From assembly GCA_965371685.1 (NCBI GenBank), contig CBDUZM010000001.1, forward strand, positions 1-37,566: DNA of 37,566 nt, in the 5' to 3' direction. Position numbers and translations under genes: made by a program. Origin of the DNA: an uncultured Spirochaetaceae bacterium (lineage in GTDB: Bacteria > Spirochaetota > Spirochaetia > SZUA-6 > CAZLRN01). Below, in pieces: positions 8,965 to 35,400 of this stretch (within the stretch, counting starts at the first letter, position 1; each line of letters starts with the position of its first letter). The notes under the pieces are model-generated. The model did not search any database, was not told the DNA's origin, and worked only from the letters and a program-made list of their open reading frames with translations.

Positions 8965-10246
8965 AAAAACAGACATTAAACTTCTGATGAGGAAAAAGGA
9001 CGAGCTTCTCGCCGAACGTCAGAAGATACTCGACAAGAACGTTGAAGAAGAGCGAGGCTACACAGACGAGGAGCGGGAAGAGGTCAAGAAGCTCCAGACG
9101 CAGATCGCGGATCTGGACGAACAGATCCGGGAGGCGCAGGAGATCGAAAAGCAAAGAGCGGGGATCCCAGCAGACCAGCCGAAACCCGGCATGCCGACCG
9201 GAGATCCGGCAGCGTCAAAACCGGCCTTCAGGAACCTCGGGCATTTTGTGCGGAACATCTGGGAGGCACGGCATGGAAACATGTCGGAGGAACTCAGGGA
9301 GTATGCCAGGGCAATGGAGGCAGGTTTCAGGGCCATGAACATCTCCGACGGAACCTCCCTGGGATTCCTGATCCCGGACACCTTCGAAGCTGGCACGCTG
9401 CAGCTGGTCGGCCCCGGGGGCTGGATCCGGCAGAGAGCCCAGATCATCCCGGCCGGGGAATATCCGGACGCACGCTTTCGCAAAAGGGTGCTGAAGCAGG
9501 GGGCGGGCGGAGTTTACAGCGGCATCCTGGTGAACTATACCGGTGAAGGAAACGCCCCGGTGGACGAGAGCAAGCTTGAGTATTTTCTCTTCACCCTGGA
9601 TCCATCGGACAAGAAGATCGGCCTTTTCTACATCACGTCCGACGAGAGCTTGCAGAACCCGACAGCTGTCACGGCGGACATGGAAAGCTCTTTCCGGGGA
9701 GCCCTGGCCGAGCTCGAGGATGACCTGTTCATCAACGGTGACGGGGTGGGCAAGCCGAAAGGAATCCTCAATTCAAGTGGGATCCGGCTCATCGACCGGA
9801 ACACGACCCTCGATTTCAAGTTCGAAGACGTTCTCCAGATGGCCAAGTACATGTATCCCAGGGCGGTAAAACGCAACTGGGAGATCACCCTGGATCTCTA
9901 CGACAAGGTAGGGGGCATGGTGGACGCCGGGAGCCGATACATTATGATAACCGGAGACGCCACCAAAGGAATCCCGGACATACTGCACGGGCGCCCAATC
10001 CACTGGAGCGAGGCGCAGCCTGCGAAGGGAGTCCGAGGAGACGTCATCCTGGCGGACTGGAGTTTCTACTACATCAAGGACGGCTCAGGTCCTTTCTTTG
10101 CAACCGATCCTTACAACCGCTTCCTGGAGGGTGAGATCCGCGTGAAGATGACGGTGAAAATGGATGGGGACACCTGGGTGAAAGAGCCCCTGACACTCAA
10201 AAACGGAATGGAGGTTTCTCCATTTGTGGTACTGGAGGCGATATAA
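8957..10246 (+). CDS. Major capsid protein, HK97 fold, with coiled-coil delta domain
   Basis: Charged N-terminal coiled coil (~100 aa), then a capsid-like body. Position and size (429 aa) fit. Confidence 0.9.
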   Translation: MAKKTDIKLLMRKKDELLAERQKILDKNVEEERGYTDEEREEVKKLQTQIADLDEQIREAQEIEKQRAGIPADQPKPGMPTGDPAASKPAFRNLGHFVRNIWEARHGNMSEELREYARAMEAGFRAMNISDGTSLGFLIPDTFEAGTLQLVGPGGWIRQRAQIIPAGEYPDARFRKRVLKQGAGGVYSGILVNYTGEGNAPVDESKLEYFLFTLDPSDKKIGLFYITSDESLQNPTAVTADMESSFRGALAELEDDLFINGDGVGKPKGILNSSGIRLIDRNTTLDFKFEDVLQMAKYMYPRAVKRNWEITLDLYDKVGGMVDAGSRYIMITGDATKGIPDILHGRPIHWSEAQPAKGVRGDVILADWSFYYIKDGSGPFFATDPYNRFLEGEIRVKMTVKMDGDTWVKEPLTLKNGMEVSPFVVLEAI

Positions 10247-11059: not shown

Positions 11060-11632
11060 ATGCAAGTAGAAATAATCAAACGGTCACGATTGAACGGCCG
11101 TGACGTGGAAGCAGGTGAAGTCGTCGAGCTCAATGCCGCATTGGCGGTGGACTGGTTTCGGGCTGGAAGGGCAAGGAAGATGTCCCTCCCGGCCAAGCCG
11201 CCCAAAGTGGAGATCCAGCTAAAGGCGCTGGACGTTTACAGCCCGGAGGAACTCGGAAAGCTGACTGTAAAGAATCTCCACCAGCTGGCGAGACTCAACG
11301 GGATCGAGGTTTCAAAGAAAGCCGACAAACAGGATCTGATCGATCTATTAATAGAGAGACAGGAAGATGAGGGATCAGAAAAAGAAGCCGGAGGAGAAGG
11401 AGATCAAGGTACAACAAAACCAACAGAAGAAGGGCTTTTGGATATGAGTATGAAAAAACTACTTCAGCTGGCAAGGCTCAACGGGATCAAGGTTTCAAAG
11501 AAAGCCACAAAGATCGGGGTGATCCATCTGCTCATAGAGGCGAAGAGAAATGAAGGAACTGGAGAAGAATGCGATGAAGAAAAGAAAGATCCAGGAGAAG
11601 CCGAAGGAGAAAACCCGGCATCTTCCTATTGA
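11060..11632 (+). CDS. Protein with two Rho_N/SAP-like helix-extended-helix motifs and acidic linkers
   Basis: LTVKNLHQLARLNGIEVSKKADKQDLIDLLIE and MSMKKLLQLARLNGIKVSKKATKIGVIHLLIE. Good SD (AAGGAG). Confidence 0.55.
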   Translation: MQVEIIKRSRLNGRDVEAGEVVELNAALAVDWFRAGRARKMSLPAKPPKVEIQLKALDVYSPEELGKLTVKNLHQLARLNGIEVSKKADKQDLIDLLIERQEDEGSEKEAGGEGDQGTTKPTEEGLLDMSMKKLLQLARLNGIKVSKKATKIGVIHLLIEAKRNEGTGEECDEEKKDPGEAEGENPASSY

Positions 11633-13527: not shown

Positions 13528-15195
13528 ATGCCTGCTGTAAAAAATGTTAAATATACGATCGGGGGGCCGGAGAGCACTCCCGGTGTGGCGGTAGCCAGGA
13601 CCCACGTGATCCCGATCCGGGGAAAGGGCGGCCTGGATAAGAGCGCAGAGAGAGGAGAGGACCCGGCTATAACGGGCGTTAACATGTCGGTGGGAGAACA
13701 CTTTCTCTCAGACGATGTGGGCGGACCGATTCCCCTGGCTATCCGCGCGACTCCCGGGATAGGAAAAATCTTAAAGTCTCTCCTGGGAACAGAATCTACG
13801 CCGGCGCAGATCGGCGCATGTATCCGACTCATCTACAAGGGATCGGAGAAGAGCTGCAAGATCATATCAAACACCACAACCGACACGCTGAAGTCTTATG
13901 TCGGGGTCAAGGGAAGCGAGAGTCTGGACACCGATTTCGGAACGGCAGGATCAATCGATCTTTCGGATCCCGCCTCCGACAAAGTCGGGGAGTTGGTGGA
14001 GGTCATCAACAACGTAGCGGACATCTACGCCCTGCTGAACGAAGCGAAGCTGGACTACGAAGCGAACAGGATCAACACAACCTCGCATCATGGAGAGGCG
14101 GACGCGACGAATGTGATAACAGCTCCGGATGCGGATACAAAAGCCAAGGCGATCACCCTCGCCAATGACCTGAGGAACCAGCTGAACGCACATATGGCTT
14201 TCATCGACAGCGTTCATACCGTCGCAGATACAACGAACCCGATCACTCTCGGAGCTTTGCGGGTAACCGCCACCTGGGCAGAAATAGCATTGCTGGCCAA
14301 TGCTATCAGGACGGCCTACGAGGCGCATAGACAGCTGGTTGACACCGTTCACGCTGGCGCCGATTCGACAAACACGATTACAGCGGAAGCGGTCAACACC
14401 AACTATTATTGCGAGAAACTTTTCGGAGCGGACGCGACGGACGCGGCGGATATCATCGACGTCACTCTTCAGGCAAAGGGCATGTATGCATCTCTGTGGT
14501 TCAGCTCGGCTGCTTCCGGCATCTACATGCGGCAATACACGCCGGACAATACCGACACCCAGCGGCCTACCTATTCGATTCAGAAAGACGGCTTTCACGA
14601 CAATTTTCTTTATGCCGGCGATGTCGTGGACACACTGAGTCTCTCGGCAGCGCTGAAGGGTTTCGTGGAAGGGGAATGTGCGGTCATCGGATTCTCGGAA
14701 GCCATAGGTCAGGGAGCTTCAGGCCTCACCCTGGAGGATATCGATCCCCTGGTATTCTACAAGGGATCTTTTACTCTTGGGAATCATACATACACTTTCA
14801 TCCGGAACCACAACCTGGCGATCGCTAACAACCATAATGCGGAAGGATATGGCCAGGGGACTCCCTCGCGGCAGTACCATCAGAAAGGATTTTTCGATAT
14901 TACCGGTGATTGCCAGCTGCGGCTCGATGCGGATTCCTATGCGGAAAGGGCGAAAGTCTTCGACGGATCCCTGGTAGGGATCTCCTTCTACTACAAAGGC
15001 AAAGAGCTGAAAACCGATATCCCGGAGCTCATGCTCGTGGAAATCCCCTATTGTTCGCTGCGGGAGCCGGACTGGCCTGAGACAAACGAACAGATCGACA
15101 TCAAGCTGGGATTCCGAGGCAACAATCCGAAGGGGACCCTATATAACAAACCGCTTACGATCACGATCCTGACCGACGACCCAGGCGCCTATTAA
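13528..15195 (+). CDS. Major tail (tube) protein with a central three-repeat helical insertion
   Basis: Immediately upstream of the G/T chaperone pair. Tube-like N- and C-terminal beta-rich regions. The internal repeat is A..L.N.....H......H..AD.TN.IT, three times. Confidence 0.6.
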   Translation: MPAVKNVKYTIGGPESTPGVAVARTHVIPIRGKGGLDKSAERGEDPAITGVNMSVGEHFLSDDVGGPIPLAIRATPGIGKILKSLLGTESTPAQIGACIRLIYKGSEKSCKIISNTTTDTLKSYVGVKGSESLDTDFGTAGSIDLSDPASDKVGELVEVINNVADIYALLNEAKLDYEANRINTTSHHGEADATNVITAPDADTKAKAITLANDLRNQLNAHMAFIDSVHTVADTTNPITLGALRVTATWAEIALLANAIRTAYEAHRQLVDTVHAGADSTNTITAEAVNTNYYCEKLFGADATDAADIIDVTLQAKGMYASLWFSSAASGIYMRQYTPDNTDTQRPTYSIQKDGFHDNFLYAGDVVDTLSLSAALKGFVEGECAVIGFSEAIGQGASGLTLEDIDPLVFYKGSFTLGNHTYTFIRNHNLAIANNHNAEGYGQGTPSRQYHQKGFFDITGDCQLRLDADSYAERAKVFDGSLVGISFYYKGKELKTDIPELMLVEIPYCSLREPDWPETNEQIDIKLGFRGNNPKGTLYNKPLTITILTDDPGAY

Positions 15196-23800: not shown

Positions 23801-24042
23801 CAAACTTAGCCACGATTCAGCCAGGCCCCGGGTCAGGATGTTTCGTCTTGGCACAGAACTTGCATCTATATCTATATGTTCTTTGAAAGATGAAGGGGAA
23901 GGGCCGACGGTGAGATAAAAGCGGCGGATCGGCGCCCTGGATCAGAGAAGGAAAAATTAAAAAAATGTCGAAACGTCCCAGCAGGGGCGTCCGCCGGGGC
24001 TGACCTCCCGGCGCCGAAGAGACAGGTTATGAGGAGAAAACC

Positions 24043-24360
24043 ATGAAACTTATGACAAAAGAAATCGAGGCCAGCATGCCGGCTCTCTACAGCCAGGCGG
24101 ACCAGTACGATCCGATCTGCCACGTGAAATATTTTACCCCGGATTCGAACTGGACCTGGTACGGGATGGAATACGATCCGGAAGACCGGATATTTTTCGG
24201 ATACGTGATCGGCCCCGAACCCGAGCTCGGAAATTTCAGCCTGGACGAGCTTGAGAGCGCCCGGGGTCCCCTGGGACTCCCGATCGAAAGGGACTTCAGT
24301 TTCGAACCCGCTCCGCTCAGCGAAATAAAAAAGGGACAGCAAGTCTCGAACCCCGCCTGA
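24043..24360 (+). CDS. DUF2958-family protein
   Basis: KYFTPDSNWTWYGMEYDPEDRIFFGYVIGPEPELGNFSLDELESARGPLGLPIERD is the characteristic DUF2958 signature, usually seen beside ArdC on plasmids and ICEs. Confidence 0.8.
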   Translation: MKLMTKEIEASMPALYSQADQYDPICHVKYFTPDSNWTWYGMEYDPEDRIFFGYVIGPEPELGNFSLDELESARGPLGLPIERDFSFEPAPLSEIKKGQQVSNPA

Positions 24361-24457: not shown

Positions 24458-25252
24458 ATGAACAGCGAAAAGGCACAAGAAACATTGGATTGGCTCATAG
24501 ACAGGCTGATTTACCAGGAGGAGCTGCCCGGGACCCTGACCAGGCTGATCCTGCAGCCGCCTGCCGGCCCCATGCAGAAATGGAGCTTGATGAATCAGCT
24601 CATGGTGCGGACACATGGCTATCAGGAAGCCAGGGGATTCAGGCAGTGGCAGCAGGTCAAGCGGTATGTGAAGAAAGGTATGAAGGCTGTCTACATCCTG
24701 GGCCCGATCATGATCCCGGTCAAGGAAGAGGACGAGACAGGGGAAAAGAAGACAAAGCTCGTCGGGTTCAAGGCCATACCTGTTTTCGGCTATGAGCAGA
24801 CAGAAGGGGAAGAGCTTCAGGAATATAACCAGAGACGCCACATCTCAGAATCCCTTCCGCATCTCCCCCTGGCTAACATTGCGTCGGATCTCGGCATCGA
24901 AGTCAAGGCCGATTTCACACACAACGGCGAGGCCGGCTATTTCCAGCCCTCGGACAGGATCATCGGAATCTGCACCGACTCCCAGCAGACCTTCCTCCAT
25001 GAGATCAGCCACGCGATTGATTACAAGTTAGGTAATAACAGCAGCCGTGAGGAAGGAGAGGTTGTGGCCGAGCTCTCAGCCTGCTTCCTGGCTCACATCC
25101 TGAGGCTTTCGGCAAACATGAAATATACGCAGAATTATATCCGCTCCTGGAGCGGCCGGCAGCACGCTGGGGTCGCCATCGGCCGGGAAATCGACCGGGT
25201 AAAGGCGATCTACGATTTCTGCAGCCGACACATCGAAGAGCAGGCAGCCTGA
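24458..25252 (+). CDS. ardC: ArdC-like antirestriction protein (ssDNA-binding N-domain + HExxH metalloprotease domain)
   Basis: The N-domain ...GFRQWQQVKRYVKKGMKAVYILGP... is DUF1738-like. The C-domain has FLHEISHAIDY (HExxH). Confidence 0.75.
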   Translation: MNSEKAQETLDWLIDRLIYQEELPGTLTRLILQPPAGPMQKWSLMNQLMVRTHGYQEARGFRQWQQVKRYVKKGMKAVYILGPIMIPVKEEDETGEKKTKLVGFKAIPVFGYEQTEGEELQEYNQRRHISESLPHLPLANIASDLGIEVKADFTHNGEAGYFQPSDRIIGICTDSQQTFLHEISHAIDYKLGNNSSREEGEVVAELSACFLAHILRLSANMKYTQNYIRSWSGRQHAGVAIGREIDRVKAIYDFCSRHIEEQAA

Positions 25253-25335
25253 GTAGGGCAAGGGACAGTCCCGTGAAAGCCGGGACCGGGGGAGAGATCC
25301 CCCGCTCCGCTCAACCTATTACAAGGAGGCGCAGA

Positions 25336-25971: not shown

Positions 25972-27081
25972 ATGCCGCGGCCTTATCTTCTGAAAAAACG
26001 TGGGAAATACTGGCACTATCGGCTCGCCGGAGAGGTCACTTTCCATACCACCGGATGCAAGAGCAAGGAGGCGGCCCACGTCTTTGCCGTCGAGGCCATT
26101 AAGAACAAGAACCCGGGACCGGAAATCCTTCTGGCCGAATTTTCCCTGGGATTCTTCGCCCAGGACGGACCCTGGGTGGCCGCCCGAAAGGCCAGGGACC
26201 GACCCTTTTCCCCGCCAATGACCCGGATTAGAACCGCTCATATGAAAAACTACATCCTCCCGACCTTCGGCCGGCAATCCCTCTCCCGGATCAAGGCCCA
26301 TGAGGTCGATGACTGGATCCTCGGCCTACCCCTGGCGAACGGCACCAAGAACGCCATACTCGACTCCTTCCGCCTAATTCTCAAAGAGGCGCAGCGCCGG
26401 AAGATCATCGATCGGAACGTCATCGAGGACATCGAGCGAATGGCAAATAAATACGTTCTCACCGATGTGTTTACCCTGGAGGAATTGGGAAAGCTCTTTC
26501 CACAGGATCGCTCCGAGCTGATCGGGGTCTGGGGACATGTGAAATGGGCGAGCATGCACTATCTGATGCTTACCGCAGGACTCCGGGTCGGGGAGGCGGC
26601 GGCGCTTCTCTGGCGCCACGTGGTCTGGGATCTCGGGGGCCTCCTGGTTCTCCAGGCTGTCAAAGGAGACGAAACCATTGGGCCGCCAAAGAGCGGGGAG
26701 GAGAGGAGCGTGATCCTGCCCGACCGCTCGATTGAGATGCTCAGGGCCTGGCAGGAAGAGACTCCGTATCCGGATCCGGAGCATTATATCTTCTTCAGTC
26801 TATCCGGAGAGGAGTATTTCAGAAGCTCCAGCGTCAGCCGGAAGATGCCCGAAGCCCTCCGCAGGTCCGGGATCGATCCGGCCGGCCGCCGGCTGCGGAC
26901 TCATTCCCTCCGCCATACCTACAATACCCGGCTGGAGAAGGTGCTGCCGGCGGAGATCCTCCGCTACATGATGGGCCATAAGACCGACGTAATGACACGG
27001 CGCTACCTCCATGTCACACCGGAGGAAAGGCTGCAGGAATATCTGCCGGTAAAAAAACAGATCGAGCAGGCCTGGGATTAA
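25972..27081 (+). CDS. int: Tyrosine recombinase / phage integrase
   Basis: C-terminal catalytic pattern ...GLRVGEAAAL... HSLRHTYNT ... MGHKTDVMTRRYLHV (R, H-x-x-R, Y). Confidence 0.9.
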   Translation: MPRPYLLKKRGKYWHYRLAGEVTFHTTGCKSKEAAHVFAVEAIKNKNPGPEILLAEFSLGFFAQDGPWVAARKARDRPFSPPMTRIRTAHMKNYILPTFGRQSLSRIKAHEVDDWILGLPLANGTKNAILDSFRLILKEAQRRKIIDRNVIEDIERMANKYVLTDVFTLEELGKLFPQDRSELIGVWGHVKWASMHYLMLTAGLRVGEAAALLWRHVVWDLGGLLVLQAVKGDETIGPPKSGEERSVILPDRSIEMLRAWQEETPYPDPEHYIFFSLSGEEYFRSSSVSRKMPEALRRSGIDPAGRRLRTHSLRHTYNTRLEKVLPAEILRYMMGHKTDVMTRRYLHVTPEERLQEYLPVKKQIEQAWD

Positions 27082-28553: not shown

Positions 28554-28928
28554 ATGGGAGGATCCAAAAGAAAAATGAAGCAGATCTGCTGCGAATGTAA
28601 GAAGATATATGGAGAGAAGCCCGGCGAAGGCTACACTCACGGTTACTGCCCGGAATGCGAGGATACGGTCCGCGAGAACCTGGGCCTGGCGCCGCGTAAA
28701 ACGGAAAAGAACAGGCTTGAATCGACTCTGCTCGAGGTGGCTGTGGATCGTAGAGACGAGGCGATCAATATACTCGACCAGCTGGCCAGCACATTACCGC
28801 GATCAACTATAGCTGGCCGTTCGCTTGTAAGATCAAAGGCCGAGGCACGGAAAGCCCAGTGTTTTATCAAGATGGACTGGATGGATCTGCGGATCCATAG
28901 CCAGGGAAATGCCGGGAAACCGGCATGA
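28554..28928 (+). CDS. Zn-ribbon protein (CxxC...CxxC)
   Basis: ICCECKKIYGEKPGEGYTHGYCPECED. The start is either ATG 28554 or ATG 28575. Confidence 0.5.
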   Translation: MGGSKRKMKQICCECKKIYGEKPGEGYTHGYCPECEDTVRENLGLAPRKTEKNRLESTLLEVAVDRRDEAINILDQLASTLPRSTIAGRSLVRSKAEARKAQCFIKMDWMDLRIHSQGNAGKPA

Positions 28929-28939
28929 AGGAGAGAGAT

Positions 28940-29251: not shown

Positions 29252-29455
29252 ATGACGCAATGTCCCTGGTGCAAAAAATATAAGAAAGGCGACAACTGCA
29301 TAAGCTGCTACAGAACCGTGAGGCAGCGTTATAAAAAACTGATGGAGGATCTGAAATTCATCTCCAGGAGTACTGCATATTACCGCGTTCAAGAAGAGCT
29401 TGTCTTAAGGTTAAACCAGGAGCCGGATATCCATGACCTTGATATCGGTTCATGA
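29252..29455 (+). CDS. Small Zn-finger-like protein (CPWC...CISC)
   Basis: MTQCPWCKKYKKGDNCISCY. Confidence 0.5.
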   Translation: MTQCPWCKKYKKGDNCISCYRTVRQRYKKLMEDLKFISRSTAYYRVQEELVLRLNQEPDIHDLDIGS

Positions 29456-29672
29456 CAGCGATGGATGCAAGGGACGCTGCGACGAAAAATGCTACGAAGC
29501 AAAAAAGAAAAGATGCTCCTGCTGCTGCGGGGGCTTAAATCATGGAAGAGGCCTGCAGGAGGCGAAGGATCTGACCTCCCAATATGCGAAAACCATCGTT
29601 CAGGCGTGGGATATAAAGCATCCGGGAGAGAAGATGCGGATTAAACCTATCCAGCCGGAGCTCTTTGCATGA
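29433..29672 (+). CDS. Cys-rich small protein (CKGRCDEKCYEAKKKRCSCCCGGLNHG)
   Basis: A conserved-looking Cys cluster of a type seen in many phage early regions. Confidence 0.55.
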   Translation: MTLISVHDSDGCKGRCDEKCYEAKKKRCSCCCGGLNHGRGLQEAKDLTSQYAKTIVQAWDIKHPGEKMRIKPIQPELFA

Positions 29673-29688
29673 GAAGGAGATGAGAGAA

Positions 29689-29976
29689 ATGCTTGAAAAC
29701 AAACCTTACCCGGGAATCGTAACACTATTAAATTGGACCGCCATGCAGGACGGCGAAGAATACCGCTATGCATGGTGTAAGGATTGGAGGATTCAAACGG
29801 ATAAGCAAATGCCTGTTGAGGGATTCCGCTCATCAGAGCACTGGCAGCTCATCGCATATTATAACGATAAGCCGGTCATGCTGATTCCCGGCTGCCAGGT
29901 CAAAGCATTTGTGATTTGCGATGAAGATCCGGCGGTGAAACGAATTTTTTCTATCGATTTCTGGATGACGATCTAA
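29689..29976 (+). CDS. Hypothetical protein
   Basis: AAGGAG lies 9 nt before ATG 29689 (the ORF is open from 29665). Confidence 0.55.
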   Translation: MLENKPYPGIVTLLNWTAMQDGEEYRYAWCKDWRIQTDKQMPVEGFRSSEHWQLIAYYNDKPVMLIPGCQVKAFVICDEDPAVKRIFSIDFWMTI

Positions 29977-29983
29977 TGATTTT

Positions 29984-30053
29984 GCAGCGGGGAGTCAGCC
30001 ATCGGCTCGTGCTGTTTGACCTTCCATTTTACAGCACAAACCCGCTGCTTTTA
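29984..30053 (+). ncRNA. Branched stem-loop element (outer stem GCAGCGGG/CCCGCTGC, two inner hairpins) followed by TTTTA; terminator or part of a larger structured RNA
   Basis: Outer stem at 29984-29991/30041-30048. Inner hairpins are AGCC-ATC-GGCT and GTGCTGT-N15-ACAGCAC. Confidence 0.4.
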
Positions 30054-30054
30054 T

Positions 30055-30126
30055 GGGGACGTGGTGTAATTGGTAACATGGTATGCCTGGCCAGGCCCGA
30101 TGCAGGTTCGAATCCTGCCGTCCCCC
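30055..30126 (+). ncRNA. tRNA-like element 1: canonical acceptor, D and T arms but no foldable anticodon arm (possible pseudo-tRNA)
   Basis: GGGGACG/CGTCCCC acceptor, GTGT-AATTGGTA-ACAT D arm, GCAGG-TTCGAAT-CCTGC T arm. The 12-nt palindrome GCCTGGCCAGGC (30085-30096) sits where the anticodon arm should be. I tested 6- to 9-nt loop registers by hand and none gave a 5-bp stem (7-nt: every window; 6/8/9-nt: most windows). Confidence 0.5.
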
Positions 30127-30276
30127 ATAGACGAATCACGAGCCTAAGAGAGGTTGGCCCAACCGATGCAGGCTCGGTCAAGGTTGGGACTGTTCGATAT
30201 CGCAGTCAAGACGAGGCGAACGCCGGTCAACGGAAGATATGAAGGCGTGACTTGCCGGGGGAGAGAACCGGCACAT

Positions 30277-30357
30277 GGGGATGTGGTGAAATTGACAATA
30301 TGTCAAGAGAGGAATGATCCAGCCGCAAGGTCGCAGGTTCAAATCCTGCCGTCCCCC
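30277..30357 (+). ncRNA. tRNA-like element 2: paralogue of element 1 with a 49-nt non-canonical core
   Basis: GGGGATG/CGTCCCC acceptor and GCAGG-TTCAAAT-CCTGC T arm. The core folds as TTGAC-AATAT-GTCAA, GGA-ATGA-TCC and GCC-GCAA-GGT rather than as D and anticodon arms. Confidence 0.45.
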
Positions 30358-30454
30358 AAACCGGAAGTGATGGGTCATCGGTTGATCGATGTTATCGTCC
30401 GGTAGGGCGACACCTGCCTAGTGGTGCTGACTGCCGGGGAGAGTACCGGCGCAT

Positions 30455-30526
30455 GGCTCTGTGGCTTAATGGTTGAGCAGCGGTCTGTTAAACCGCCAGA
30501 CGCAGGTTCAATTCCTGCCGGAGCCT
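30455..30526 (+). tRNA. tRNA-Asn (anticodon GTT)
   Basis: Acceptor GGCTCTG/CGGAGCC, D arm GCTT-AATGGTT-GAGC, anticodon arm GCGGT-CTGTTAA-ACCGC, variable loop CAGAC, T arm GCAGG-TTCAATT-CCTGC. CCA is not encoded. Confidence 0.9.
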
Positions 30527-30539
30527 ATAGGAGAGAATC

Positions 30540-30920
30540 ATGAACTGGATAGCCTTTATCTTCGCACTTGAAATCGGCTTTTTGCCTCAGGGTGATCTTA
30601 TCATGTATGAAGAGCTCAAGCTGGTTCCTGTGCAATATTCCGTTTACACCGACCTGCAGGCCGAGATTGAGATTGCGGGTTTTTTCTTCATCGGGGGCGG
30701 GGTATGGACTGGCGCCTGGTACCATGGTGGATACACCTTCTGGCCGCATCGTAGCATATACAGCTTTCGCACAGGGCTGCGCTGGAAGGGAATTGAAGCC
30801 GGCTGGCGGCATAATTGCTTTCATGCCCAGACGCCTTTTTTTGGATTCGGTGTCTTGGATTATCGGGCGATATGGGAAGGCGCATACGATGAGCTCTATT
30901 TGAGAATAAGCAATAGATGA
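30540..30920 (+). CDS. Hypothetical aromatic/Gly-rich, beta-strand-like protein
   Basis: AGGAGAG SD directly after the tRNA. Alternating hydrophobic pattern (YSVYTDLQAEIEIAGFFFIGGGVWTGAWY). No clear signal peptide. Confidence 0.5.
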   Translation: MNWIAFIFALEIGFLPQGDLIMYEELKLVPVQYSVYTDLQAEIEIAGFFFIGGGVWTGAWYHGGYTFWPHRSIYSFRTGLRWKGIEAGWRHNCFHAQTPFFGFGVLDYRAIWEGAYDELYLRISNR

Positions 30921-31390
30921 GAGGAAGATCTATGACCCGGTATGCAGAGAAAACAGAGGTTTCTACTGAACGCTCGAAGACGGAGATCGAAAGGATCCTG
31001 ACGCGCTACGGCGCCGGGCAGTTCGCTTATGGAACAGGACCTATACGCGCAATGGTAGGATTCGCTCTCGATCGCTGGTATGTCCGATTCATTCTACCGC
31101 TGCCGGATCCGAAGGGAGAGGAGTTCCGGAGAACGCCGACCGGCCGGATCCGCACGAAGGACGCGGCAGCCAAGGAATACGATCAGGAGATCCGCCGGCT
31201 CTGGAGGGCCCTGGCCCTGACGATCAAAAGCAAACTAGAGACGGTGCAGTCCGGGATCCTCACCTTCGAAGAGGAGTTCATGGCGAACATCGTGCTGTCA
31301 GACGGCCAGACGATCAGCCAGCATGTGCTGCCCCGGATTGACGATTACGAAATGAAGAAGATCCCGGAGCTCCTTCCGCTCCTGGAATAA
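30917..31390 (+). CDS. Conserved-looking hypothetical phage protein
   Basis: ATGA overlap with the previous ORF, with an alternative ATG at 30932 after GAGGAAG. No motif I can name. Confidence 0.55.
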   Translation: MRGRSMTRYAEKTEVSTERSKTEIERILTRYGAGQFAYGTGPIRAMVGFALDRWYVRFILPLPDPKGEEFRRTPTGRIRTKDAAAKEYDQEIRRLWRALALTIKSKLETVQSGILTFEEEFMANIVLSDGQTISQHVLPRIDDYEMKKIPELLPLLE

Positions 31391-31427
31391 ATCAATTTTG
31401 GCGCTGACACCAAAAAGGAGAAAAGTC

Positions 31428-32933
31428 ATGGGAGAAGAAATTCGGAACATCACCCTGGACAGCATCGTTCCTCATCCGGGGAACAGGCGTGTGGGGGGAT
31501 TCGATCAGGCCAAGCTCGAGGAGCTGGCGCTTTCTATCGAAGCGGTGGGCGTCCAGCAGCCGGCGGTAATCAGGCCGATAATCCGGCGTCTGAAGGAAGA
31601 TAAGATGTATCAGCTCGTCACCGGAGAGCGGCGCTGGCGGGCGGCCAGGATAGCCGGCATGGCAGCCCTCCCCTGCGTGATCCGAGAGATAAGCGACGAA
31701 GCGGTCCTGAAGATCCAGACGATCGAGAACCTCCAGCGGGAAGACATTCATCCCCTGGACGAGGCGGAGGGCTACCGGCGGCTCATCGAAGAGGCTGGTT
31801 ACGACGTGGAGCATCTGGCCAAAGATGTGGGAAAATCCATTTCCTATATCTATAGACGTCTGAAGCTGCGCGAACTATCCGACAAGACACGCCAGGATTT
31901 CATAGAAAATAAGATGACTACAGAACATGCAATCCTCATCGCCCGAATTCCGGAAGAGCAACAGAAGAAATGCCTTGATTATATCTCAACCTATAGGGGT
32001 GGGTGTACGGATATTTCTGTTAGAAATCTTTCCAATTTTATCAATGGGGAATTTCTTTTAGATCTCAGCGCAGCATCCTTCAAGAAGGACGATGAGAAGC
32101 TATATCCGAAAGCCGGCGCATGTGTCGATTGCAAGAAACGAACAGGCCATAATCCCGATCTCTTCGAAGATCTCAAAGGGAAGGATCACTGCCTGGACTC
32201 GAAATGCTTCAACCATAAGCTCGACGAGATGATCAAACGTGGGCAGCGAGAACTCGAGGGTGAGGATCATTACGAGGTATACAAGGATTGGGTGGGCAAT
32301 CCTAAAAAGGAAGCGCTAAACGTATACGATTGGGAGGAATGCAAAAAGAAGGATGAAGGGGCCAAGCCGGCGCTGATCATCAGCGGAGTCCAACGGGGCC
32401 GGCGCACATATGCCAAGAAACGTGAACAAACTACATACAGCAGATTCGAGAATCCGGAAGATGAAGCGGAATGGAAAAAAGAGCAGTATGAGAGAGAGCT
32501 CAAGATTTCCGAGAATACAATCCTGAACACAAAGATCCATGACCAACTCATACTTCAGTATCGATTAGCAGAGAAGAAATGGGACAGGAATCTCGCTCTC
32601 TGCATCATCTTCCAATTAAAGGATATTTTATGGGGCGTGGATATTGACGAATTTTTAGAAAAATATTTCGTCCAGCTTCCGGAGAACTATGATGATTCGC
32701 AGCTGCAGGAGATTATGGAAAAACTTCCGGACGAAGATCTGGAAATGATTACCATCGAAATGCTCATACAGGGCGAAACGTTCACCAATCACGAGAGAAT
32801 GGAAGAAACCTTATTGTATCGATGGGCTCAGAATCGGAGCATCGATGTGAAAGCCTTACAAAAAAGCGCCAGGGAAGAGGCGGAAAAAAAGCTGGCCGAG
32901 AAAGAGGAGCCTGAAAAAAATGACGAAGCTTGA
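31428..32933 (+). CDS. parB: ParB/Spo0J-family protein (CTPase-fold N-domain) with a Cys-rich middle region
   Basis: IVPHPGNRR...LALSIEAVGVQQPAVIRP...YQLVTGERRWRAARIAG...IQTIENLQREDIHPLDEAEGY are the ParB boxes I-III. AAGGAG SD precedes ATG 31428. Confidence 0.8.
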   Translation: MGEEIRNITLDSIVPHPGNRRVGGFDQAKLEELALSIEAVGVQQPAVIRPIIRRLKEDKMYQLVTGERRWRAARIAGMAALPCVIREISDEAVLKIQTIENLQREDIHPLDEAEGYRRLIEEAGYDVEHLAKDVGKSISYIYRRLKLRELSDKTRQDFIENKMTTEHAILIARIPEEQQKKCLDYISTYRGGCTDISVRNLSNFINGEFLLDLSAASFKKDDEKLYPKAGACVDCKKRTGHNPDLFEDLKGKDHCLDSKCFNHKLDEMIKRGQRELEGEDHYEVYKDWVGNPKKEALNVYDWEECKKKDEGAKPALIISGVQRGRRTYAKKREQTTYSRFENPEDEAEWKKEQYERELKISENTILNTKIHDQLILQYRLAEKKWDRNLALCIIFQLKDILWGVDIDEFLEKYFVQLPENYDDSQLQEIMEKLPDEDLEMITIEMLIQGETFTNHERMEETLLYRWAQNRSIDVKALQKSAREEAEKKLAEKEEPEKNDEA

Positions 32934-33146: not shown

Positions 33147-34112
33147 GTGGCACGGCCGGAACGTCATGACGCAGATTATTTTCCATTTTATTCCAAGGAC
33201 GGAAGGACGCTCTTTCTCCTGCAGGATAGATTCGGTTTGGAGGGGATCGGTTTTTTCACGAATGTTTGCCGTTTTCTTTGTGAGACTCCTGATCATCATG
33301 TATGCATCCAGGATGATTCGGACAGGATGTATTTTTATGCCAAGATCGGCATCGAAGAAAAGAAAGGAGAGGCCATGCTTGATCTCATGGCGAAAACTGA
33401 AAAGATCGATCCGGATCTCTGGGACAAGAAAGTCATCGCATCGGAAGCCTTCCTGGAAAGCCTGGCAGCTTTGTATGAAAGACGGTCCAATGAGTGCATT
33501 ACTATTGAGGAAATAAGGAAACGGTATGATGAAACTTCCCGGGAGAACATGATCGACAATGAGGATTTACGGGAACAGAAACCCACTTCCGAGGAGGTTT
33601 CCGGGGACATAAACCCCGTAAATGAGGATTACCGGGTACATAAACCCACTTGCGACGGGGTTTCCGGGGACAATAACCCACAAAGTAAAGTAAAGAAGAG
33701 TAAAGTAAAGAAGAGTAAAGTAAAGAATATCAAAAACCTCACGCCGAAAACGGCGTCTTCTGAAGAATCTTCTATTTTCAAAAGAGCTCAGATTCTCATG
33801 GAAGAGATCCACGGAGACACATATCTGAATTACAAAAAGGAGGCGCCGTGCCTTAAGAGATTCATCGAGCAGGTATCCAAGAAATCAAAACATGATCCAT
33901 GGGAGTTGATTGAAGCCATGATCTACCAGTTTGCCGAAATGAAGCAGCATGATCGAACTTCCAAAGGATATTGGCGTACCATGGATTTCACGCCGTGTAA
34001 ACTATTGTCCCATGCAGAAAATATTTATGAGCAATTTAAGCAGCGGACGAAAGAAGAAAAATTAACCAGTGAAGATAAGGAGCTGATAAAACGGCTATGG
34101 GGCGGGGGATAA
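33147..34112 (+). CDS. DUF4373-type replisome organiser / replication initiation-like protein
   Basis: N-terminal DADYFPFYSKDGRTLFLLQDRFGLEGIGFFTNVCRFL (Lin1244/Lin1753-like). GTG start after GGAGGGGA. Contains internal DNA repeats. Confidence 0.65.
   Translation: MARPERHDADYFPFYSKDGRTLFLLQDRFGLEGIGFFTNVCRFLCETPDHHVCIQDDSDRMYFYAKIGIEEKKGEAMLDLMAKTEKIDPDLWDKKVIASEAFLESLAALYERRSNECITIEEIRKRYDETSRENMIDNEDLREQKPTSEEVSGDINPVNEDYRVHKPTCDGVSGDNNPQSKVKKSKVKKSKVKNIKNLTPKTASSEESSIFKRAQILMEEIHGDTYLNYKKEAPCLKRFIEQVSKKSKHDPWELIEAMIYQFAEMKQHDRTSKGYWRTMDFTPCKLLSHAENIYEQFKQRTKEEKLTSEDKELIKRLWGGG
33558..33728. repeat. Intragenic tandem repeats: 2 x 63 bp then 3 x 15 bp (AGTAAAGTAAAGAAG); candidate origin iterons
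   Basis: The 63-bp units are 33558-33620 and 33621-33683. The 15-bp units are 33684-33698, 33699-33713 and 33714-33728. Confidence 0.85.
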
Positions 34113-34632: not shown

Positions 34633-34689
34633 ATATTGATATTTCCAAGATCGAGAAAAAAAAGAGCAAGTAAAGGAGGAAAAGAAGAA

Positions 34690-35400
34690 ATGAAAAAAGC
34701 ATGGATCACTACGGAACAATGGCAGGCCTGCGCCTTTCATGTGGATTTGATTAAGCTGGAGAGGAAACCTTGCTACCTGGGCATGGAGCTCTCGGCTTTG
34801 CAGGATATTACGGCAGCGGCTCTCTGCTTTCCCCCGCAATCCTCAAGGGAACGCTATCAATTTCTCTTCAGATTTTTCATACCTTCAGAAATCATCATGG
34901 AAAGAGAGGGGAAGGAAAAGATCCCTTTTTCATCCTGGATCAACAAAGGCCTGGTGACCGCGACTCCGGGGAATGTCACAGACTATGATTTTATAGAGCA
35001 GCAGATCCTCGAGGATGCGGAGAGATATGAAATCCGGGGAATCGCATATGATTCCTGGAAGGCTCCTGAAATTGTCAATCATCTTATGAACAAAGGATTC
35101 ACAATGATCCAGATCAATCAGACCTTTTCAGGCATGGCCAGGCCGACAGAAATTTTTAAAAAGAAGGTCCTGACCCGGGTAATCGCCCATGACGGAAATC
35201 CGATTATGAACTGGATGATTTCATGCACGGAGCTGAAAAGAAATAAGCAAGGTGAGGAAATACCGAAGAATCTGCTCTATGAAAAAAGCTATAAAAAAGG
35301 CACACCGATCCGCGACTGGCCGGAAAACAAGAGCAGGATCAAGGGCGTGGTGGCTTCGATCATGGCCCTTGGAATAGCGGTAGGACCGACGGAGAAATAA
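34690..35400 (+). CDS. Stand-alone paralogue of the terL C-terminal RNase H-like nuclease domain (no ATPase domain)
   Basis: AAGGAGGA SD precedes ATG 34690. The product aligns over its whole length with terL residues from about CYVGMDLSASQDIT to VVASIIAIG. Examples: CYLGMELSALQDITAAALCFPPQS..RERYQFLFRFFIP and GNPIMNWMISCTE. Confidence 0.75.
   Translation: MKKAWITTEQWQACAFHVDLIKLERKPCYLGMELSALQDITAAALCFPPQSSRERYQFLFRFFIPSEIIMEREGKEKIPFSSWINKGLVTATPGNVTDYDFIEQQILEDAERYEIRGIAYDSWKAPEIVNHLMNKGFTMIQINQTFSGMARPTEIFKKKVLTRVIAHDGNPIMNWMISCTELKRNKQGEEIPKNLLYEKSYKKGTPIRDWPENKSRIKGVVASIMALGIAVGPTEK

Follow-up and report, generated by a model that had tools for sequence, protein, structure and literature searches.

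The usual explanations for tRNA clusters in phages are codon supply and evasion of anticodon nucleases, and those elements of a cluster that tRNA finders do not accept are commonly set aside as pseudogenes. We analyzed a window, the whole 37,566-nucleotide stretch of DNA presented above, in which a temperate phage carries ~560 bases without coding sequence (29977-30539) that comprise one canonical tRNA-Asn(GUU), two tRNA-shaped elements (E1 and E2), and structured spacer RNA. The question raised by this locus is whether E1, E2, and the spacers are tRNA debris or parts of RNA genes. If an anticodon-less tRNA shape and its spacer are under selection in different phages, some "pseudo-tRNAs" would belong to small-RNA genes that make use of host tRNA processing, and new regulatory RNAs could be sought in the spacers of phage tRNA arrays. 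A sequence-only reading made before this analysis had seen no convincing ORF here, in agreement with the complete lack of Pfam matches for the four ORFs inside the region and with their frames, which are not retained in a homologous locus of another phage contig (L100). All of the elements listed in that reading are present at the positions it gave.

Tandem layout of the tRNA-shaped elements

The locus is laid out on the forward strand as three units, E1 with the spacer S1 and a GC hairpin, E2 with the spacer S2 and the same hairpin, and tRNA-Asn with the downstream mRNA, and to all appearances this is a tandem series of old duplications. The units are related through the terminal hairpins of S1 and S2, the three T arms, the 5' halves of E1 and E2 (82%), and the AUAG trailer shared by E1 and tRNA-Asn. 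With the Rfam tRNA model RF00005 (gathering threshold, 29 bits), E1, E2, and tRNA-Asn score 44.8, 34.2, and 67.8 bits, respectively, and E1 and E2 exceed the threshold solely because the model skips the anticodon arm as a local end of 17 nt in E1 and 23 nt in E2. ARAGORN assigns no defined anticodon to E1 ("tRNA-???", with a 2-nt anticodon) and makes no call for E2, and it reports the third element as tRNA-Asn(gtt). The 7-bp acceptor stem and a T arm with a GTTCRAnYC loop are present in all three elements, each of which also has a U at position -1, and every acceptor position is paired across E1, E2, the L100 element, a further phage element (L008 11061), and tRNA-Asn. The D arm (3-4-bp stem; A14, G18G19, and A21) is found in E1 and tRNA-Asn but not in E2, whereas the 5-bp anticodon stem and 7-nt loop with U33 and an anticodon occur in tRNA-Asn but in neither E1 nor E2; tRNA-Asn alone is capable of decoding. 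E1 and E2 are clearly tRNA descendants without an anticodon loop, both retaining the acceptor and T arm, and E1 also the D arm and the elbow nucleotides.

E1 (30055-30126) is 72 nt long and has a 7-bp acceptor stem, a canonical D arm (U8, A14, G18G19, and A21), and a canonical T arm, and the mini-hairpin GCCU-GGCC-AGGC occupies the position of the anticodon arm. Its discriminator is C, a CCA end is not encoded, and the fold has a z of -0.9. The same chassis is seen in L008 11061-11173. In the 81-nt E2 (30277-30357), a paralog of E1, the fold confirms the earlier description of an acceptor stem and a T arm around three small hairpins, one of them closed by a GCAA loop (z = -3.2). The acceptor stem (one G-U) and T arm match those of E1. 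The D arm is degenerate, with G19 replaced by A, an A-A at pair 13-22, and two G-U pairs, and its place is taken by a 6-bp hairpin, UUGACA-AUA-UGUCAA; the anticodon arm is absent, and a short GCAA-capped arm stands at the variable-arm position. The "perfect D arm" noted previously for E1 holds there, with one G-U pair, but not for E2, the D stem of which comprises three weak pairs. An isotype for the ancestor of E1 and E2 was considered from the D arm, which resembles those of phage tRNA-Pro(UGG) and type II tRNAs, and from the short variable-arm-like hairpin of E2, and was set aside as too uncertain.

The tRNA-Asn (30455-30526) is canonical, as had been proposed, being called by ARAGORN and aligned over its full length by Rfam; its discriminator is U73, and again no CCA is encoded. 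The Shine-Dalgarno AGGAGAG and the ATG of a 126-aa gene with homologues, read from the sequence and the ORF list, lie at 30529-30542, and this Shine-Dalgarno starts 2-3 nt past the 3' end of tRNA-Asn. Two ribozymes elsewhere in the genome, also on this strand, likewise end just short of a Shine-Dalgarno, with 0-1 nt between: a hammerhead at 23966-24031 and a twister-sister at 25251-25323. With two self-cleaving ribozymes and one tRNA directly before ribosome-binding sites, this genome offers a compact system in which to examine how RNA elements may punctuate the operons of a phage.

At the 5' end of the locus, directly 3' of the stop codon of a 103-aa ORF, lies a Y-shaped, terminator-like structure (29984-30054), in which an outer stem, GCAGCGGG/CCCGCUGC, surrounds two hairpins and is followed by UUUUAU. 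The branched element at 29984-30048 with its U-rich tract, as drawn in the sequence-only reading, is the minimum-free-energy (MFE) fold (-31.4 kcal/mol, z = -5.45), and 0 of 200 shuffles fold as well. An intrinsic terminator would consist of a GC-rich hairpin and, directly after it, a U-tract; here, an 8-bp outer stem and the UUUUAU are present, but the "loop" is branched and 49 nt long, and the terminator scanner flags an inner hairpin only. Neither an Rfam match nor a homologue was found for this element. The "nearly continuous structure" claimed for the region exceeds chance only in part, z being -2.1 for S1, -1.0 for S2, -0.9 for E1, and -1.8 for the region as a whole.

The tRNA model is the only Rfam model with a credible match at the locus, at the gathering threshold and at E up to 5, the ribozymes and C4 being among the families searched. 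GOLLD and ROOL, which the sequence-only reading had named, are unmatched in the whole window at the gathering threshold and in 29900-30600 at E up to 5; ARAGORN finds no tmRNA in the window, and the Y RNA-like YrlA (RF02553) gives no match in 29900-30600 at E up to 5. A sub-threshold YrlA match was seen only in an unrelated locus, L009. No promoter-like site was found at 29400-31000. The idea that the spacers are decayed copies of the downstream gene was rejected, the similarity being not above that of shuffles.

The S1 spacer and its homologue in a second phage

In L100, a tRNA-like element, S1, and the hairpin are found together at 3450-3675, followed by UUUUUU, and this unit lies ~145 nt downstream of a promoter-like TTTGCA-16-TATAAT in which 10 of the 12 positions match. 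The tRNA-like heads, E1 and L100 3450-3530, are 63% identical, and neither has a 7-nt anticodon loop. All seven acceptor pairs are formed in both heads, although four of the seven are changed on both strands between them; the D and T arms are conserved. S1 (30127-30273) and L100 3530-3675 are identical at 136 of 147 positions (92.5%, 11 differences). For comparison, third-codon positions in the best-conserved neighboring coding module are 74.6% identical between the window and L100 (36 of 49 at fourfold-type sites), and the flanking 157-aa and ParB genes show 59-61% DNA identity. In this one homologue, the fully paired acceptor stem and an S1 identity above the ~74% of synonymous sites are not what a neutral pseudogene would give. 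An ORF that spans S1 is frame-shifted in L100 by an indel. Since the unit of tRNA-like element and spacer is found in a second phage, the E1-S1 type of unit is probably a real, uncharacterized RNA gene and not decayed tRNA debris.

The candidate helices of S1 are 30136-30140/30246-30250 (UCACG/CGUGA), 30155-30164/30182-30192, and 30193-30201/30236-30243, and the consensus fold ends in a terminal hairpin (30253-30258/30268-30273). In this fold, which was optimized on the same two sequences by which it is judged, five of the differences are unpaired, six preserve a pair, and none breaks one. Two adjacent pairs of the third helix, 30199-30238 and 30200-30237, are doubly compensated; at least two compensations arise with a probability of 0.026 in a random-transition simulation, and the built-in shuffle control, which cannot reach significance here, gave 99 of 500. 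The covariation is drawn from two sequences because there is one homologue only. The consensus is the MFE fold of the L100 S1 itself, whereas in the window sequence it lies 10 kcal/mol above the MFE with an ensemble probability near zero; there, the nested hairpin at 30139-30176 that had been noted earlier is the dominant local fold, with pair probabilities of at least 0.96. Within S1, CCGATGCAGGCTCG (30163-30176) is a copy of the variable loop and T-stem start of E1 (30097-30110; direct repeat family D4, 93% identity). Its local alignment score is 23 (shuffle mean, 14.9; shuffle maximum, 23), and a mini-hairpin precedes the copy as it does its counterpart in E1. Complementary 9-11-mers of S1 occur at shuffle level in the window, none recurring in L100, and no antisense target above chance was found in either phage genome.

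The second spacer, S2 (30358-30454), folds no better than shuffles. The 29 nt with which it closes (GUGCUGACUGCCGG-GGAGAGUA-CCGGCGCAU) have their paralog at the 3' end of S1, with an alignment score of 34 vs. a shuffle maximum of 23. A 35-nt part of S2 is 97% identical to an IMG/VR locus (L104 2381-2414); apart from the terminal hairpin, no homologue of E2 or S2 was found. The motif GCCGGGG..CCGGCRCAT occurs in exactly two copies, at 30254-30276 before E2 and at 30433-30454 before tRNA-Asn, with 0 expected by chance. The repeat had been noted previously and interpreted as a leader hairpin, which is probably wrong: it more likely forms the 3' ends of the spacers, because in L100 the hairpin ends the S1 unit and is then followed by UUUUUU. 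The window copies are without a U-tract, and tracts comparable to that of L100 follow in L119 and L142.

Further copies were sought widely. Relatives of the 126-aa gene (84-65% identity), as well as most relatives of the 157-aa gene, are without the locus, and L100 alone has it; for the 103-aa protein encoded upstream, neither an exact record nor a relative among the fetched loci was found. No relevant DNA similarity was found in INPHARED phages, PLSDB plasmids, or E. coli genomes. A T-arm/acceptor pattern returned many unrelated normal or aberrant tRNAs from IMG/VR, metagenomes, and GTDB and no copy of the locus, and the matches to a 5'-half pattern were tRNA-Pro genes of phages and fragments in which the D arm is similar. 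An S1 19-mer had zero matches in IMG/VR, the hairpin patterns matched mostly coding sequence plus a few real motif copies, and an S1 covariance model gave no further member in 60 loaded loci. In the phage tRNA array of L095, an orphan 5' half-tRNA is situated upstream of tRNA-Asn. Our literature search found no description of anticodon-less phage tRNA-like families.

Processing, decay, and other readings

The reading that we favor, with chances of about even, is a non-coding RNA locus punctuated by tRNAs, from which host RNase P and 3' tRNA-processing enzymes would release small RNAs, tRNA-Asn, and an mRNA with a short leader. Such a locus would have arisen when a unit in which a tRNA or tRNA-shaped element is combined with a structured spacer and a GC hairpin was duplicated in tandem long ago, and it would be transcribed rightward together with its neighbors. 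Host RNase P would cleave on the 5' side of every tRNA-shaped element and the 3' tRNA-processing enzymes on the 3' side, the tRNA-like heads serving as handles for processing and stability. The predicted products are S1 (~150 nt) and S2 (~97 nt) as discrete small RNAs with a protecting 3' hairpin. Cleavage would also set free E1 and E2, as stable tRNA-like RNAs that do not decode, the mature tRNA-Asn, and an mRNA with its 5' end 2-3 nt before its own ribosome-binding site. The conserved core with the function would be S1, most probably a small RNA that acts in trans or binds a protein. Several points speak against this reading: the comparison has one homologue, the consensus fold of S1 is disfavored in the window sequence, E2 has lost G19, E2 and S2 have no homologue beyond the terminal hairpin, S2 folds no better than shuffles, neither a promoter-like site at 29400-31000 nor an antisense target above chance was found, a terminator-like structure is located directly upstream of E1, and the identity of S1 could come from a more recent exchange of the module, as these phages are mosaic. 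A parallel in favor is the placement of the two ribozymes of this genome directly before a Shine-Dalgarno, and RNase P substrates do include non-tRNA and tRNA-like RNAs, such as the phage C4 antisense RNA and polycistronic mRNAs (PMC11143913).

The main rival, which we hold to be less likely, is that the locus is a decaying phage tRNA array, in which tandem tRNA duplicates had their anticodon arms deleted or scrambled except in tRNA-Asn; E1, E2, and the spacers would then be functionless relics and the hairpins leftovers, for example, of old terminators. A history of duplication and decay, one of the explanations offered by the sequence-only reading, is indeed visible in the paralogous T arms, 5' halves, trailers, and hairpins, in the tRNA fragment at 30163-30176, and in the degenerate D arm of E2, and it would agree with the chance-level structure of S2, with debris in other phage tRNA arrays, such as L095, and with the lack of the locus in phages carrying close homologues of the flanking genes. 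In prokaryotes, tRNA fragments are known to be mistaken for tRNA genes (PMC9897764). However, pure neutral decay fits poorly with the doubly compensated acceptor pairs of two elements that both lack an anticodon loop, with the conservation of S1 above synonymous sites and without a broken consensus pair, and with a replacement hairpin in E1 that is a perfect palindrome and not random sequence. Both elements keep the acceptor, the T arm, and, in E1, the D arm and elbow nucleotides, with the anticodon loop dispensable in two phages, and the acceptor stem has diverged more rapidly than other parts of the element while always remaining paired, which would fit an arms race. These features could also mean that E1 and E2 are themselves the effectors, acting as decoys of, or as substrates that compete for, host enzymes or defence toxins with specificity for the tRNA acceptor end or elbow (for example, CCA-end-modifying toxins or acceptor-stem nucleases), with the spacers secondary; phage tRNAs are known to counter tRNA-targeting defences (PMC10264068). 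We consider this improbable, as the best-conserved part is S1 and not the tRNA-like head, and within the window the locus has no linked gene for a defence system or a tRNA enzyme. Aminoacyl-tRNA synthetases that charge without reading the anticodon use G3-U70, A73, and G-1 as determinants, and by these identity rules E1 and E2 would have none of them. A combined version is unlikely, but less so: E1-S1 would be the founding pair of an undescribed phage ncRNA family, composed of an anticodon-less tRNA-shaped domain, a conserved ~115-nt multi-helix RNA, and a terminal hairpin, with a fast co-evolving acceptor stem. Its head would be more than a processing handle, namely an active mimic directed against some host enzyme or defence toxin by which the acceptor end or elbow of tRNA is read.

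Phage attachment cores are classically found in the 3' halves of tRNAs, and the perfect palindromes GCCTGGCCAGGC and TTGACA-ATA-TGTCAA, the integrase gene 3 kb upstream, and the ParB-like and replication-initiator genes 1-3 kb downstream might point to a DNA-level element (an attachment-site remnant, a replication origin, or an operator cluster), the palindromes of which only mimic RNA structure. That is very improbable in view of the complete cloverleaf parts on one strand with their acceptor covariation, the compensatory changes in S1, which include G-U-compatible ones sensible only in RNA, and the integrase gene, which is not adjacent to the locus. We give hardly any credence to the suggestion that the whole 560 nt are one large ornate ncRNA of the GOLLD/ROOL kind with embedded tRNA-like domains. 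RNAs of this kind have been reported beside tRNAs in prophages, the region has many hairpins, and an inverted repeat (29990-29999 with 30426-30435) could close a 450-nt domain; but other large-RNA models are as unmatched at E up to 5 as those of GOLLD and ROOL, the whole-region z is modest, a 10-nt imperfect inverted repeat is by a rough estimate expected by chance in 560 nt, and the homologous part of L100 is a discrete ~230-nt unit that ends in a hairpin and a U-tract. The idea holds up on a smaller scale, S1 being a conserved structured RNA absent from Rfam.

Comparison with known systems

GOLLD and ROOL resemble the present locus as structured non-coding phage regions beside a tRNA, but they measure 500-800 nt, whereas the conserved unit here is ~230 nt and matches no covariance model of theirs. 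tmRNA and YrlA likewise contain an acceptor and T-arm mimic without a decoding anticodon arm; neither is detected in the window, and the topology is different, as E1 and E2 are contiguous elements in cloverleaf order. HDV-like theta ribozymes, which also adjoin phage tRNAs, have a proposed role in tRNA end processing (PMC10879173). In contrast, the self-cleaving ribozymes of this genome, the hammerhead and the twister-sister, lie elsewhere. A theta or HDV-like ribozyme after the tRNAs, which would have a nested double-pseudoknot fold beginning ~5 nt or less from a tRNA 3' end, was rejected, given no HDV-family match at E up to 5 and, by eye, no P1-complementary strand after E1, E2, or tRNA-Asn; this is a weak test, made with the HDV families of Rfam and by inspection.

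In the case of the C4 antisense RNA of phages P1 and P7 (RF01695), a phage small RNA is cut from a longer transcript by the tRNA-processing machinery (PMC11143913), as is proposed here. The window differs in having no match to the C4 model, a full tRNA-shaped domain 5' of the small RNA, and no complementary cis target found. The C4 model does match L002, a relative of the window's neighboring gene, where C4 and isrK are located ~900 nt from that gene. Small RNAs that derive from tRNA transcript spacers, such as E. coli 3'ETS-leuZ, and the tRNA-microRNA units of murine gammaherpesvirus 68 likewise owe their processing sites, and sometimes their expression, to an adjacent tRNA or tRNA-like element in the same transcript. 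Their heads are working tRNAs or RNA polymerase III elements, whereas the putative head here is a non-decoding tRNA relic in a phage.

Phage tRNA clusters with pseudo-tRNAs and fragments share with this locus the tandem array on one strand and the combination of one canonical tRNA with tRNA-homologous elements that tRNA finders reject or flag, and similar aberrant elements occur in the arrays of L008, L009, L013, L014, and L095. Unlike in those clusters, the element and its spacer recur here in a second phage, the acceptor stem is compensated, and the spacer is conserved above the level of synonymous sites, a behavior that would not be expected of junk.

Architecture of the non-coding locus

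The phage genome in the window (~37.5 kb) carries all of its sizeable ORFs on the + strand. Recognisable + strand genes encode the small terminase, portal, head protease, major head protein, and tape measure, together with a large terminase (4128-5915) that shares less than 40% identity with its counterpart in any cultured phage, a tyrosine integrase (25972-27081), a ParB-like protein (31398-32933), and a replication initiator (33147-34112). A second ORF of 254 aa (34636-35400, +) lies far from this real terminase gene and matches large terminases (PHROG 2699, E = 7e-52) in their C-terminal (nuclease) part only. The non-coding locus (29977-30539) is flanked by a 103-aa ORF upstream (stop at 29976) and a 126-aa ORF downstream (ATG at 30540), and its internal ORFs gave no Pfam matches.

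Every element that the sequence-only reading had listed is present at the locus. Three of them, all on the + strand, match the Rfam tRNA model: E1 (30055-30126, 44.8 bits), E2 (30277-30357, 34.2 bits), and a canonical tRNA-Asn (30455-30526, 67.8 bits), which ARAGORN also calls as tRNA-Asn(GTT). The claim that E1 and E2 are tRNA-like elements without an anticodon arm is borne out by the Rfam alignments, which span the acceptor, D, and T arms and skip 17 nt (E1) and 23 nt (E2) at the anticodon-arm place, and by ARAGORN, which reports E1 as 'tRNA-???' with a 2-nt anticodon and leaves E2 uncalled. E1 has a perfect 7-bp acceptor stem, the T loop UUCGAAU, and the core nucleotides U8, A14, G18G19, and A21; the palindrome GCCUGGCCAGGC, with a potential 4-bp stem and 4-nt loop, stands instead of the anticodon arm. 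The D arm proposed for E1 is sound (4 bp, including one G-U), but that of E2 has a weak stem and a G19-to-A change. E2 shares the T arm of E1 and its acceptor stem, except for a C6-to-U change that gives a G-U pair. In the MFE fold of E2, the D arm gives way to a perfect hairpin, UUGACA-AUA-UGUCAA, with GGA-AUGA-UCC and then a GCAA-capped 3-bp stem on its 3' side. Position -1 is U in all three elements, and none of the three encodes CCA. The discriminator is C73 in E1 and E2 and U (30526) in tRNA-Asn; that of E. coli tRNA-Asn is G73.

An Rfam scan of the region at E up to 5 gave no credible family besides tRNA, the other listings being weak plastid and snoRNA model matches (E 0.3-4.8), and membership in the GOLLD or ROOL RNAs is thus rejected. 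The near-continuous structure described earlier holds for the branched 5' element, a Y-shaped structure at 29984-30048 followed by UUUUAU (z = -5.45, far beyond the shuffles), and for E2 (z = -3.2), but is uneven elsewhere, as in E1 (-0.9) and in S2, the spacer between E2 and tRNA-Asn (30358-30454, -1.0). S1, the spacer between E1 and E2 (30127-30273), has a z of -2.1, and the whole region -1.8. The branched 5' element is a strong terminator-like structure directly 5' of E1, and no promoter-like site was found in window positions 29400-31000.

The locus is an assembly of paralogous pieces. The T arms of E1, E2, and tRNA-Asn are near-identical (GCAGGUUC(G/A)A(A/U)UCCUGCC), E1 and E2 agree at 82% of positions in their 5' halves, and the trailer AUAG is common to E1 and tRNA-Asn. 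The same hairpin, (U)GCCGG-G(G)GAGAG(A/U)A-CCGGC(A/G)CAU, forms the last 29 nt upstream of both E2 and tRNA-Asn. In addition, S1 holds CCGAUGCAGGCUCG, a copy of the E1 variable loop and the start of the T stem, and a mini-hairpin precedes both copies. The acceptor stems of E1 and E2 differ from that of tRNA-Asn at four pairs, all fully compensated; hence, E2 is not a decayed tRNA-Asn copy.

A homologous unit in a second phage

No relatives of the locus emerged when cultured phages, plasmids, and E. coli genomes were searched by DNA similarity. Pattern scans with the shared T arm and acceptor 3' half returned 41 loci, including ordinary tRNAs, archaeal tRNAs with inserted sequence, and many aberrant phage tRNA-like elements, and the locus itself was in none of the 41. 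Close homologues of the 126-aa gene occur in other contexts and have no upstream RNA cluster; therefore, the cluster is a lineage-specific module. Homologues of the 157-aa gene, the next one after the 126-aa gene, led to L100, a phage contig with a 62% identical neighbour protein (amino acids) and a homologous piece of the locus. Its 81-nt tRNA-like element (3450-3530, Rfam 46.8 bits) has a D arm, GUGUAAUUGGCAACAC, almost equal to that of E1, a similar T arm, and an 'anticodon' stem CCUGG/CCAGG around a 16-nt loop. On the 3' side follows the S1 homologue, AUAGACGGAUCACGAGCC..., which ends in the GC hairpin as in the window, and UUUUUU comes next. With this 3' end and a promoter-like TTTGCA-16-TATAAT (10/12 positions) ~145 nt upstream, the L100 unit resembles a stand-alone RNA gene. 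The repeated hairpins (30253-30273 and 30433-30450), previously taken as leaders, more probably form the 3' ends of S1 and S2, since the same hairpin ends S1 in L100 before UUUUUU.

S1 is identical at 136 of 147 positions (92.5%) between the window and L100. In the same genome pair, the flanking 157-aa and ParB genes show 59-61% DNA identity, and in the coding module with the highest similarity (window 28566-28933), identity reaches 74.6% at third-codon positions and 90-91% at first and second positions, with 36 of 49 fourfold-type synonymous sites identical. By these yardsticks, S1 behaves as if under constraint, barring an exchange of S1 later than that of all other shared sequence. This constraint does not act on a protein, because an indel shifts the frame of the only ORF start common to both S1 sequences. 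In the RNAalifold consensus of these two sequences, 5 of the 11 differences are unpaired and 6 keep or improve pairs, including two adjacent full compensations (A30199-U30238 to G-C and U30200-A30237 to C-G) and changes at pairs 30196-30240 (G-U to A-U) and 30155-30192 (U-G to C-G). Of 1000 simulations, each introducing one deletion and ten random transitions, 2.6% gave at least two compensated pairs; covariation tests on two sequences are weak by design. The consensus equals the MFE fold of L100 alone and lies 10 kcal/mol above the MFE in the window sequence, whose ensemble is dominated by the local nested hairpin noted before. Of the candidate S1 fold, the pairing of 30193-30201 with 30236-30243 is taken as supported; it may form a helix or join the loops of two local hairpins. 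No S1 antisense targets above chance were found in either phage.

E1 and the L100 element are 63% identical, with the differences unevenly spread: the D and T arms are conserved, and acceptor pairs 1, 4, 5, and 6 have changed on both strands with 7/7 pairs still formed. The two acceptor strands, 60 nt apart, thus changed together although the stretches between and downstream of them remained similar, which one recombination breakpoint could not produce; judged from this one homologue, the pattern points to selection for acceptor pairing in the tRNA-like head. Both lack a usable anticodon loop (16 nt in L100, 4 nt in E1), and MAFFT aligns the E1 palindrome region to the long L100 loop with 13/20 identities. 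This match agrees with descent from an ancestor that was aberrant already, but is too short for proof.

Similar elements in other contigs

On L008, a 100-kb phage contig, positions 11061-11173 hold a third element on the E1 chassis, with an E1-type acceptor stem, a similar D arm, the leader GCGCAUGC, a long insertion, and an apparent Leu(CAA) anticodon arm. Phage 'tRNAs' of this 113-123-nt class with an insertion occur in L008 (-) at 9329-9444, 11061-11173, and 11301-11413, and in contig L009 (+) at 4649-4765, 4862-4977, and 5076-5198; they score above the Rfam threshold and are mostly rejected by ARAGORN. The insertion lies inside the anticodon arm or immediately 5' of it. Visual inspection places ~40 nt after the D arm and before an anticodon arm that looks real (Thr GGU, Leu CAA, Asn GUU, Lys UUU), whereas the Rfam alignment puts 55-60 nt within the anticodon stem. 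The hairpin of the insertion covaries between both phages (AGACUU/AAGUCU versus GGUCA/UGACC) and precedes a C(U/A)GCAA motif. The insertion is found in three different tRNA bodies in each phage, matched no Rfam family, and no description was found in the literature.

A 61-nt element (contigs L014 1883-1943, the same as L025 7347-7407, and L036 400-460) has acceptor, D, and T arms, a discriminator C like E1 and E2, and wholly lacks the anticodon arm; it is solitary, between a large ORF and the next ORF downstream, in two different contigs, one substitution apart. Four soil metagenome contigs (L026, L028, L039, L043) carry 67-nt elements that join the same acceptor stem and T arm to a single long hairpin, whose stem differs among contigs by wobble-compatible changes. 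In phage tRNA-like elements at three further loci (L013 4683-4773, the same as L040 12045-12135, and L045 257-338), the 3' 42 nt of E1 are matched at 94-95% identity as a GC hairpin followed by CCCGAUGCAGG and the T arm; the 5' half is unlike E1, with a D-loop insertion, and the central hairpin of L045 could present a UCA anticodon. Furthermore, six contigs (L057, L068, L074, L081, L087, L088) have the hairpin GCCGGGGGGAGACCCCCGGC and GCAU directly 5' of an aberrant tRNA-like element between head genes, with a bulged acceptor stem, a UCCGACU T loop, and encoded CCA, called tRNA-Ile(GAT) by ARAGORN in 1/6 loci.

A two-part motif, a closing helix ..UCACG.. / ..CGUGA(CU) and immediately thereafter the hairpin GCCGG-GNGAGAGWA-CCGGC, is absent from Rfam and occurs in S1 and S2, L100, and four other contigs (L104 2086-2416, L152 ~770-805, L119 1551-1602, and L142 on the - strand). 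Between the strands of the closing helix lie 7 nt in L119 and L142 (U-tract next), ~105 nt in S1, and ~300 nt in L104, to which the last 35 nt of S2 are 97% identical.

Interpretation and predicted processing

Of the readings compared, a small-RNA locus punctuated by tRNAs is the most likely; its one conserved unit, a tRNA-like element plus S1, is undescribed. The pseudogene reading, a plain decaying tRNA array, accounts for the paralogy, the tRNA fragment in S1, the damaged D arm of E2, and the unstructured S2, and tRNA arrays with such debris exist: in a phage array of 17 tRNAs, contig L095 carries an orphan tRNA 5' half (14164-14232, +; acceptor strand and D arm, GGGGATGTGGTGTAAACGGCAACATG) just 5' of a normal tRNA-Asn, so phage tRNA arrays can hold gene fragments. 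However, the pseudogene reading is incomplete, leaving unexplained both the conservation of S1 in its single homologue, L100, and the acceptor-stem covariation. The evidence does not support one large ornate RNA, and a DNA-level element is unlikely, given cloverleaf parts that are strand-specific and changes that depend on G-U pairing. A putative decoy role of E1 and E2, a rival reading, would be compatible with the data.

Beyond the observed anatomy, paralogy, conservation, and covariation, we infer that the locus would be transcribed together with the rightward genes, RNase P would cleave 5' of E1, E2, and tRNA-Asn, and 3' tRNA-processing enzymes would cleave on their 3' sides. The predicted products would be S1 and S2 as small RNAs with hairpin ends, two non-decoding tRNA-like RNAs, tRNA-Asn, and an mRNA starting 2-3 nt 5' of AGGAGAG, the Shine-Dalgarno sequence of the 126-aa gene. 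A cassette of two ORFs (24043-24360 and 24458-25252), of which the second resembles anti-restriction proteins, is bordered on one side by a type II hammerhead (23966-24031, +, 42.2 bits) and on the other by a twister-sister ribozyme (25251-25323, +, 48 bits). The 12-mer CCGGGGGAGAGA is common to the twister-sister hairpin (25283-25294) and the S1 terminal hairpin (30255-30266), which may reflect chance or a shared preference, and the hammerhead likewise has a GCCGGGG...CCCGGC stem. Both ribozymes end 0-1 nt 5' of a Shine-Dalgarno sequence and tRNA-Asn 2-3 nt 5' of one; therefore, cleavage just 5' of ribosome-binding sites is predicted at three sites in this phage. Known RNase P substrates include the phage C4 antisense RNA, polycistronic mRNAs, and other tRNA-like RNAs (PMC11143913).
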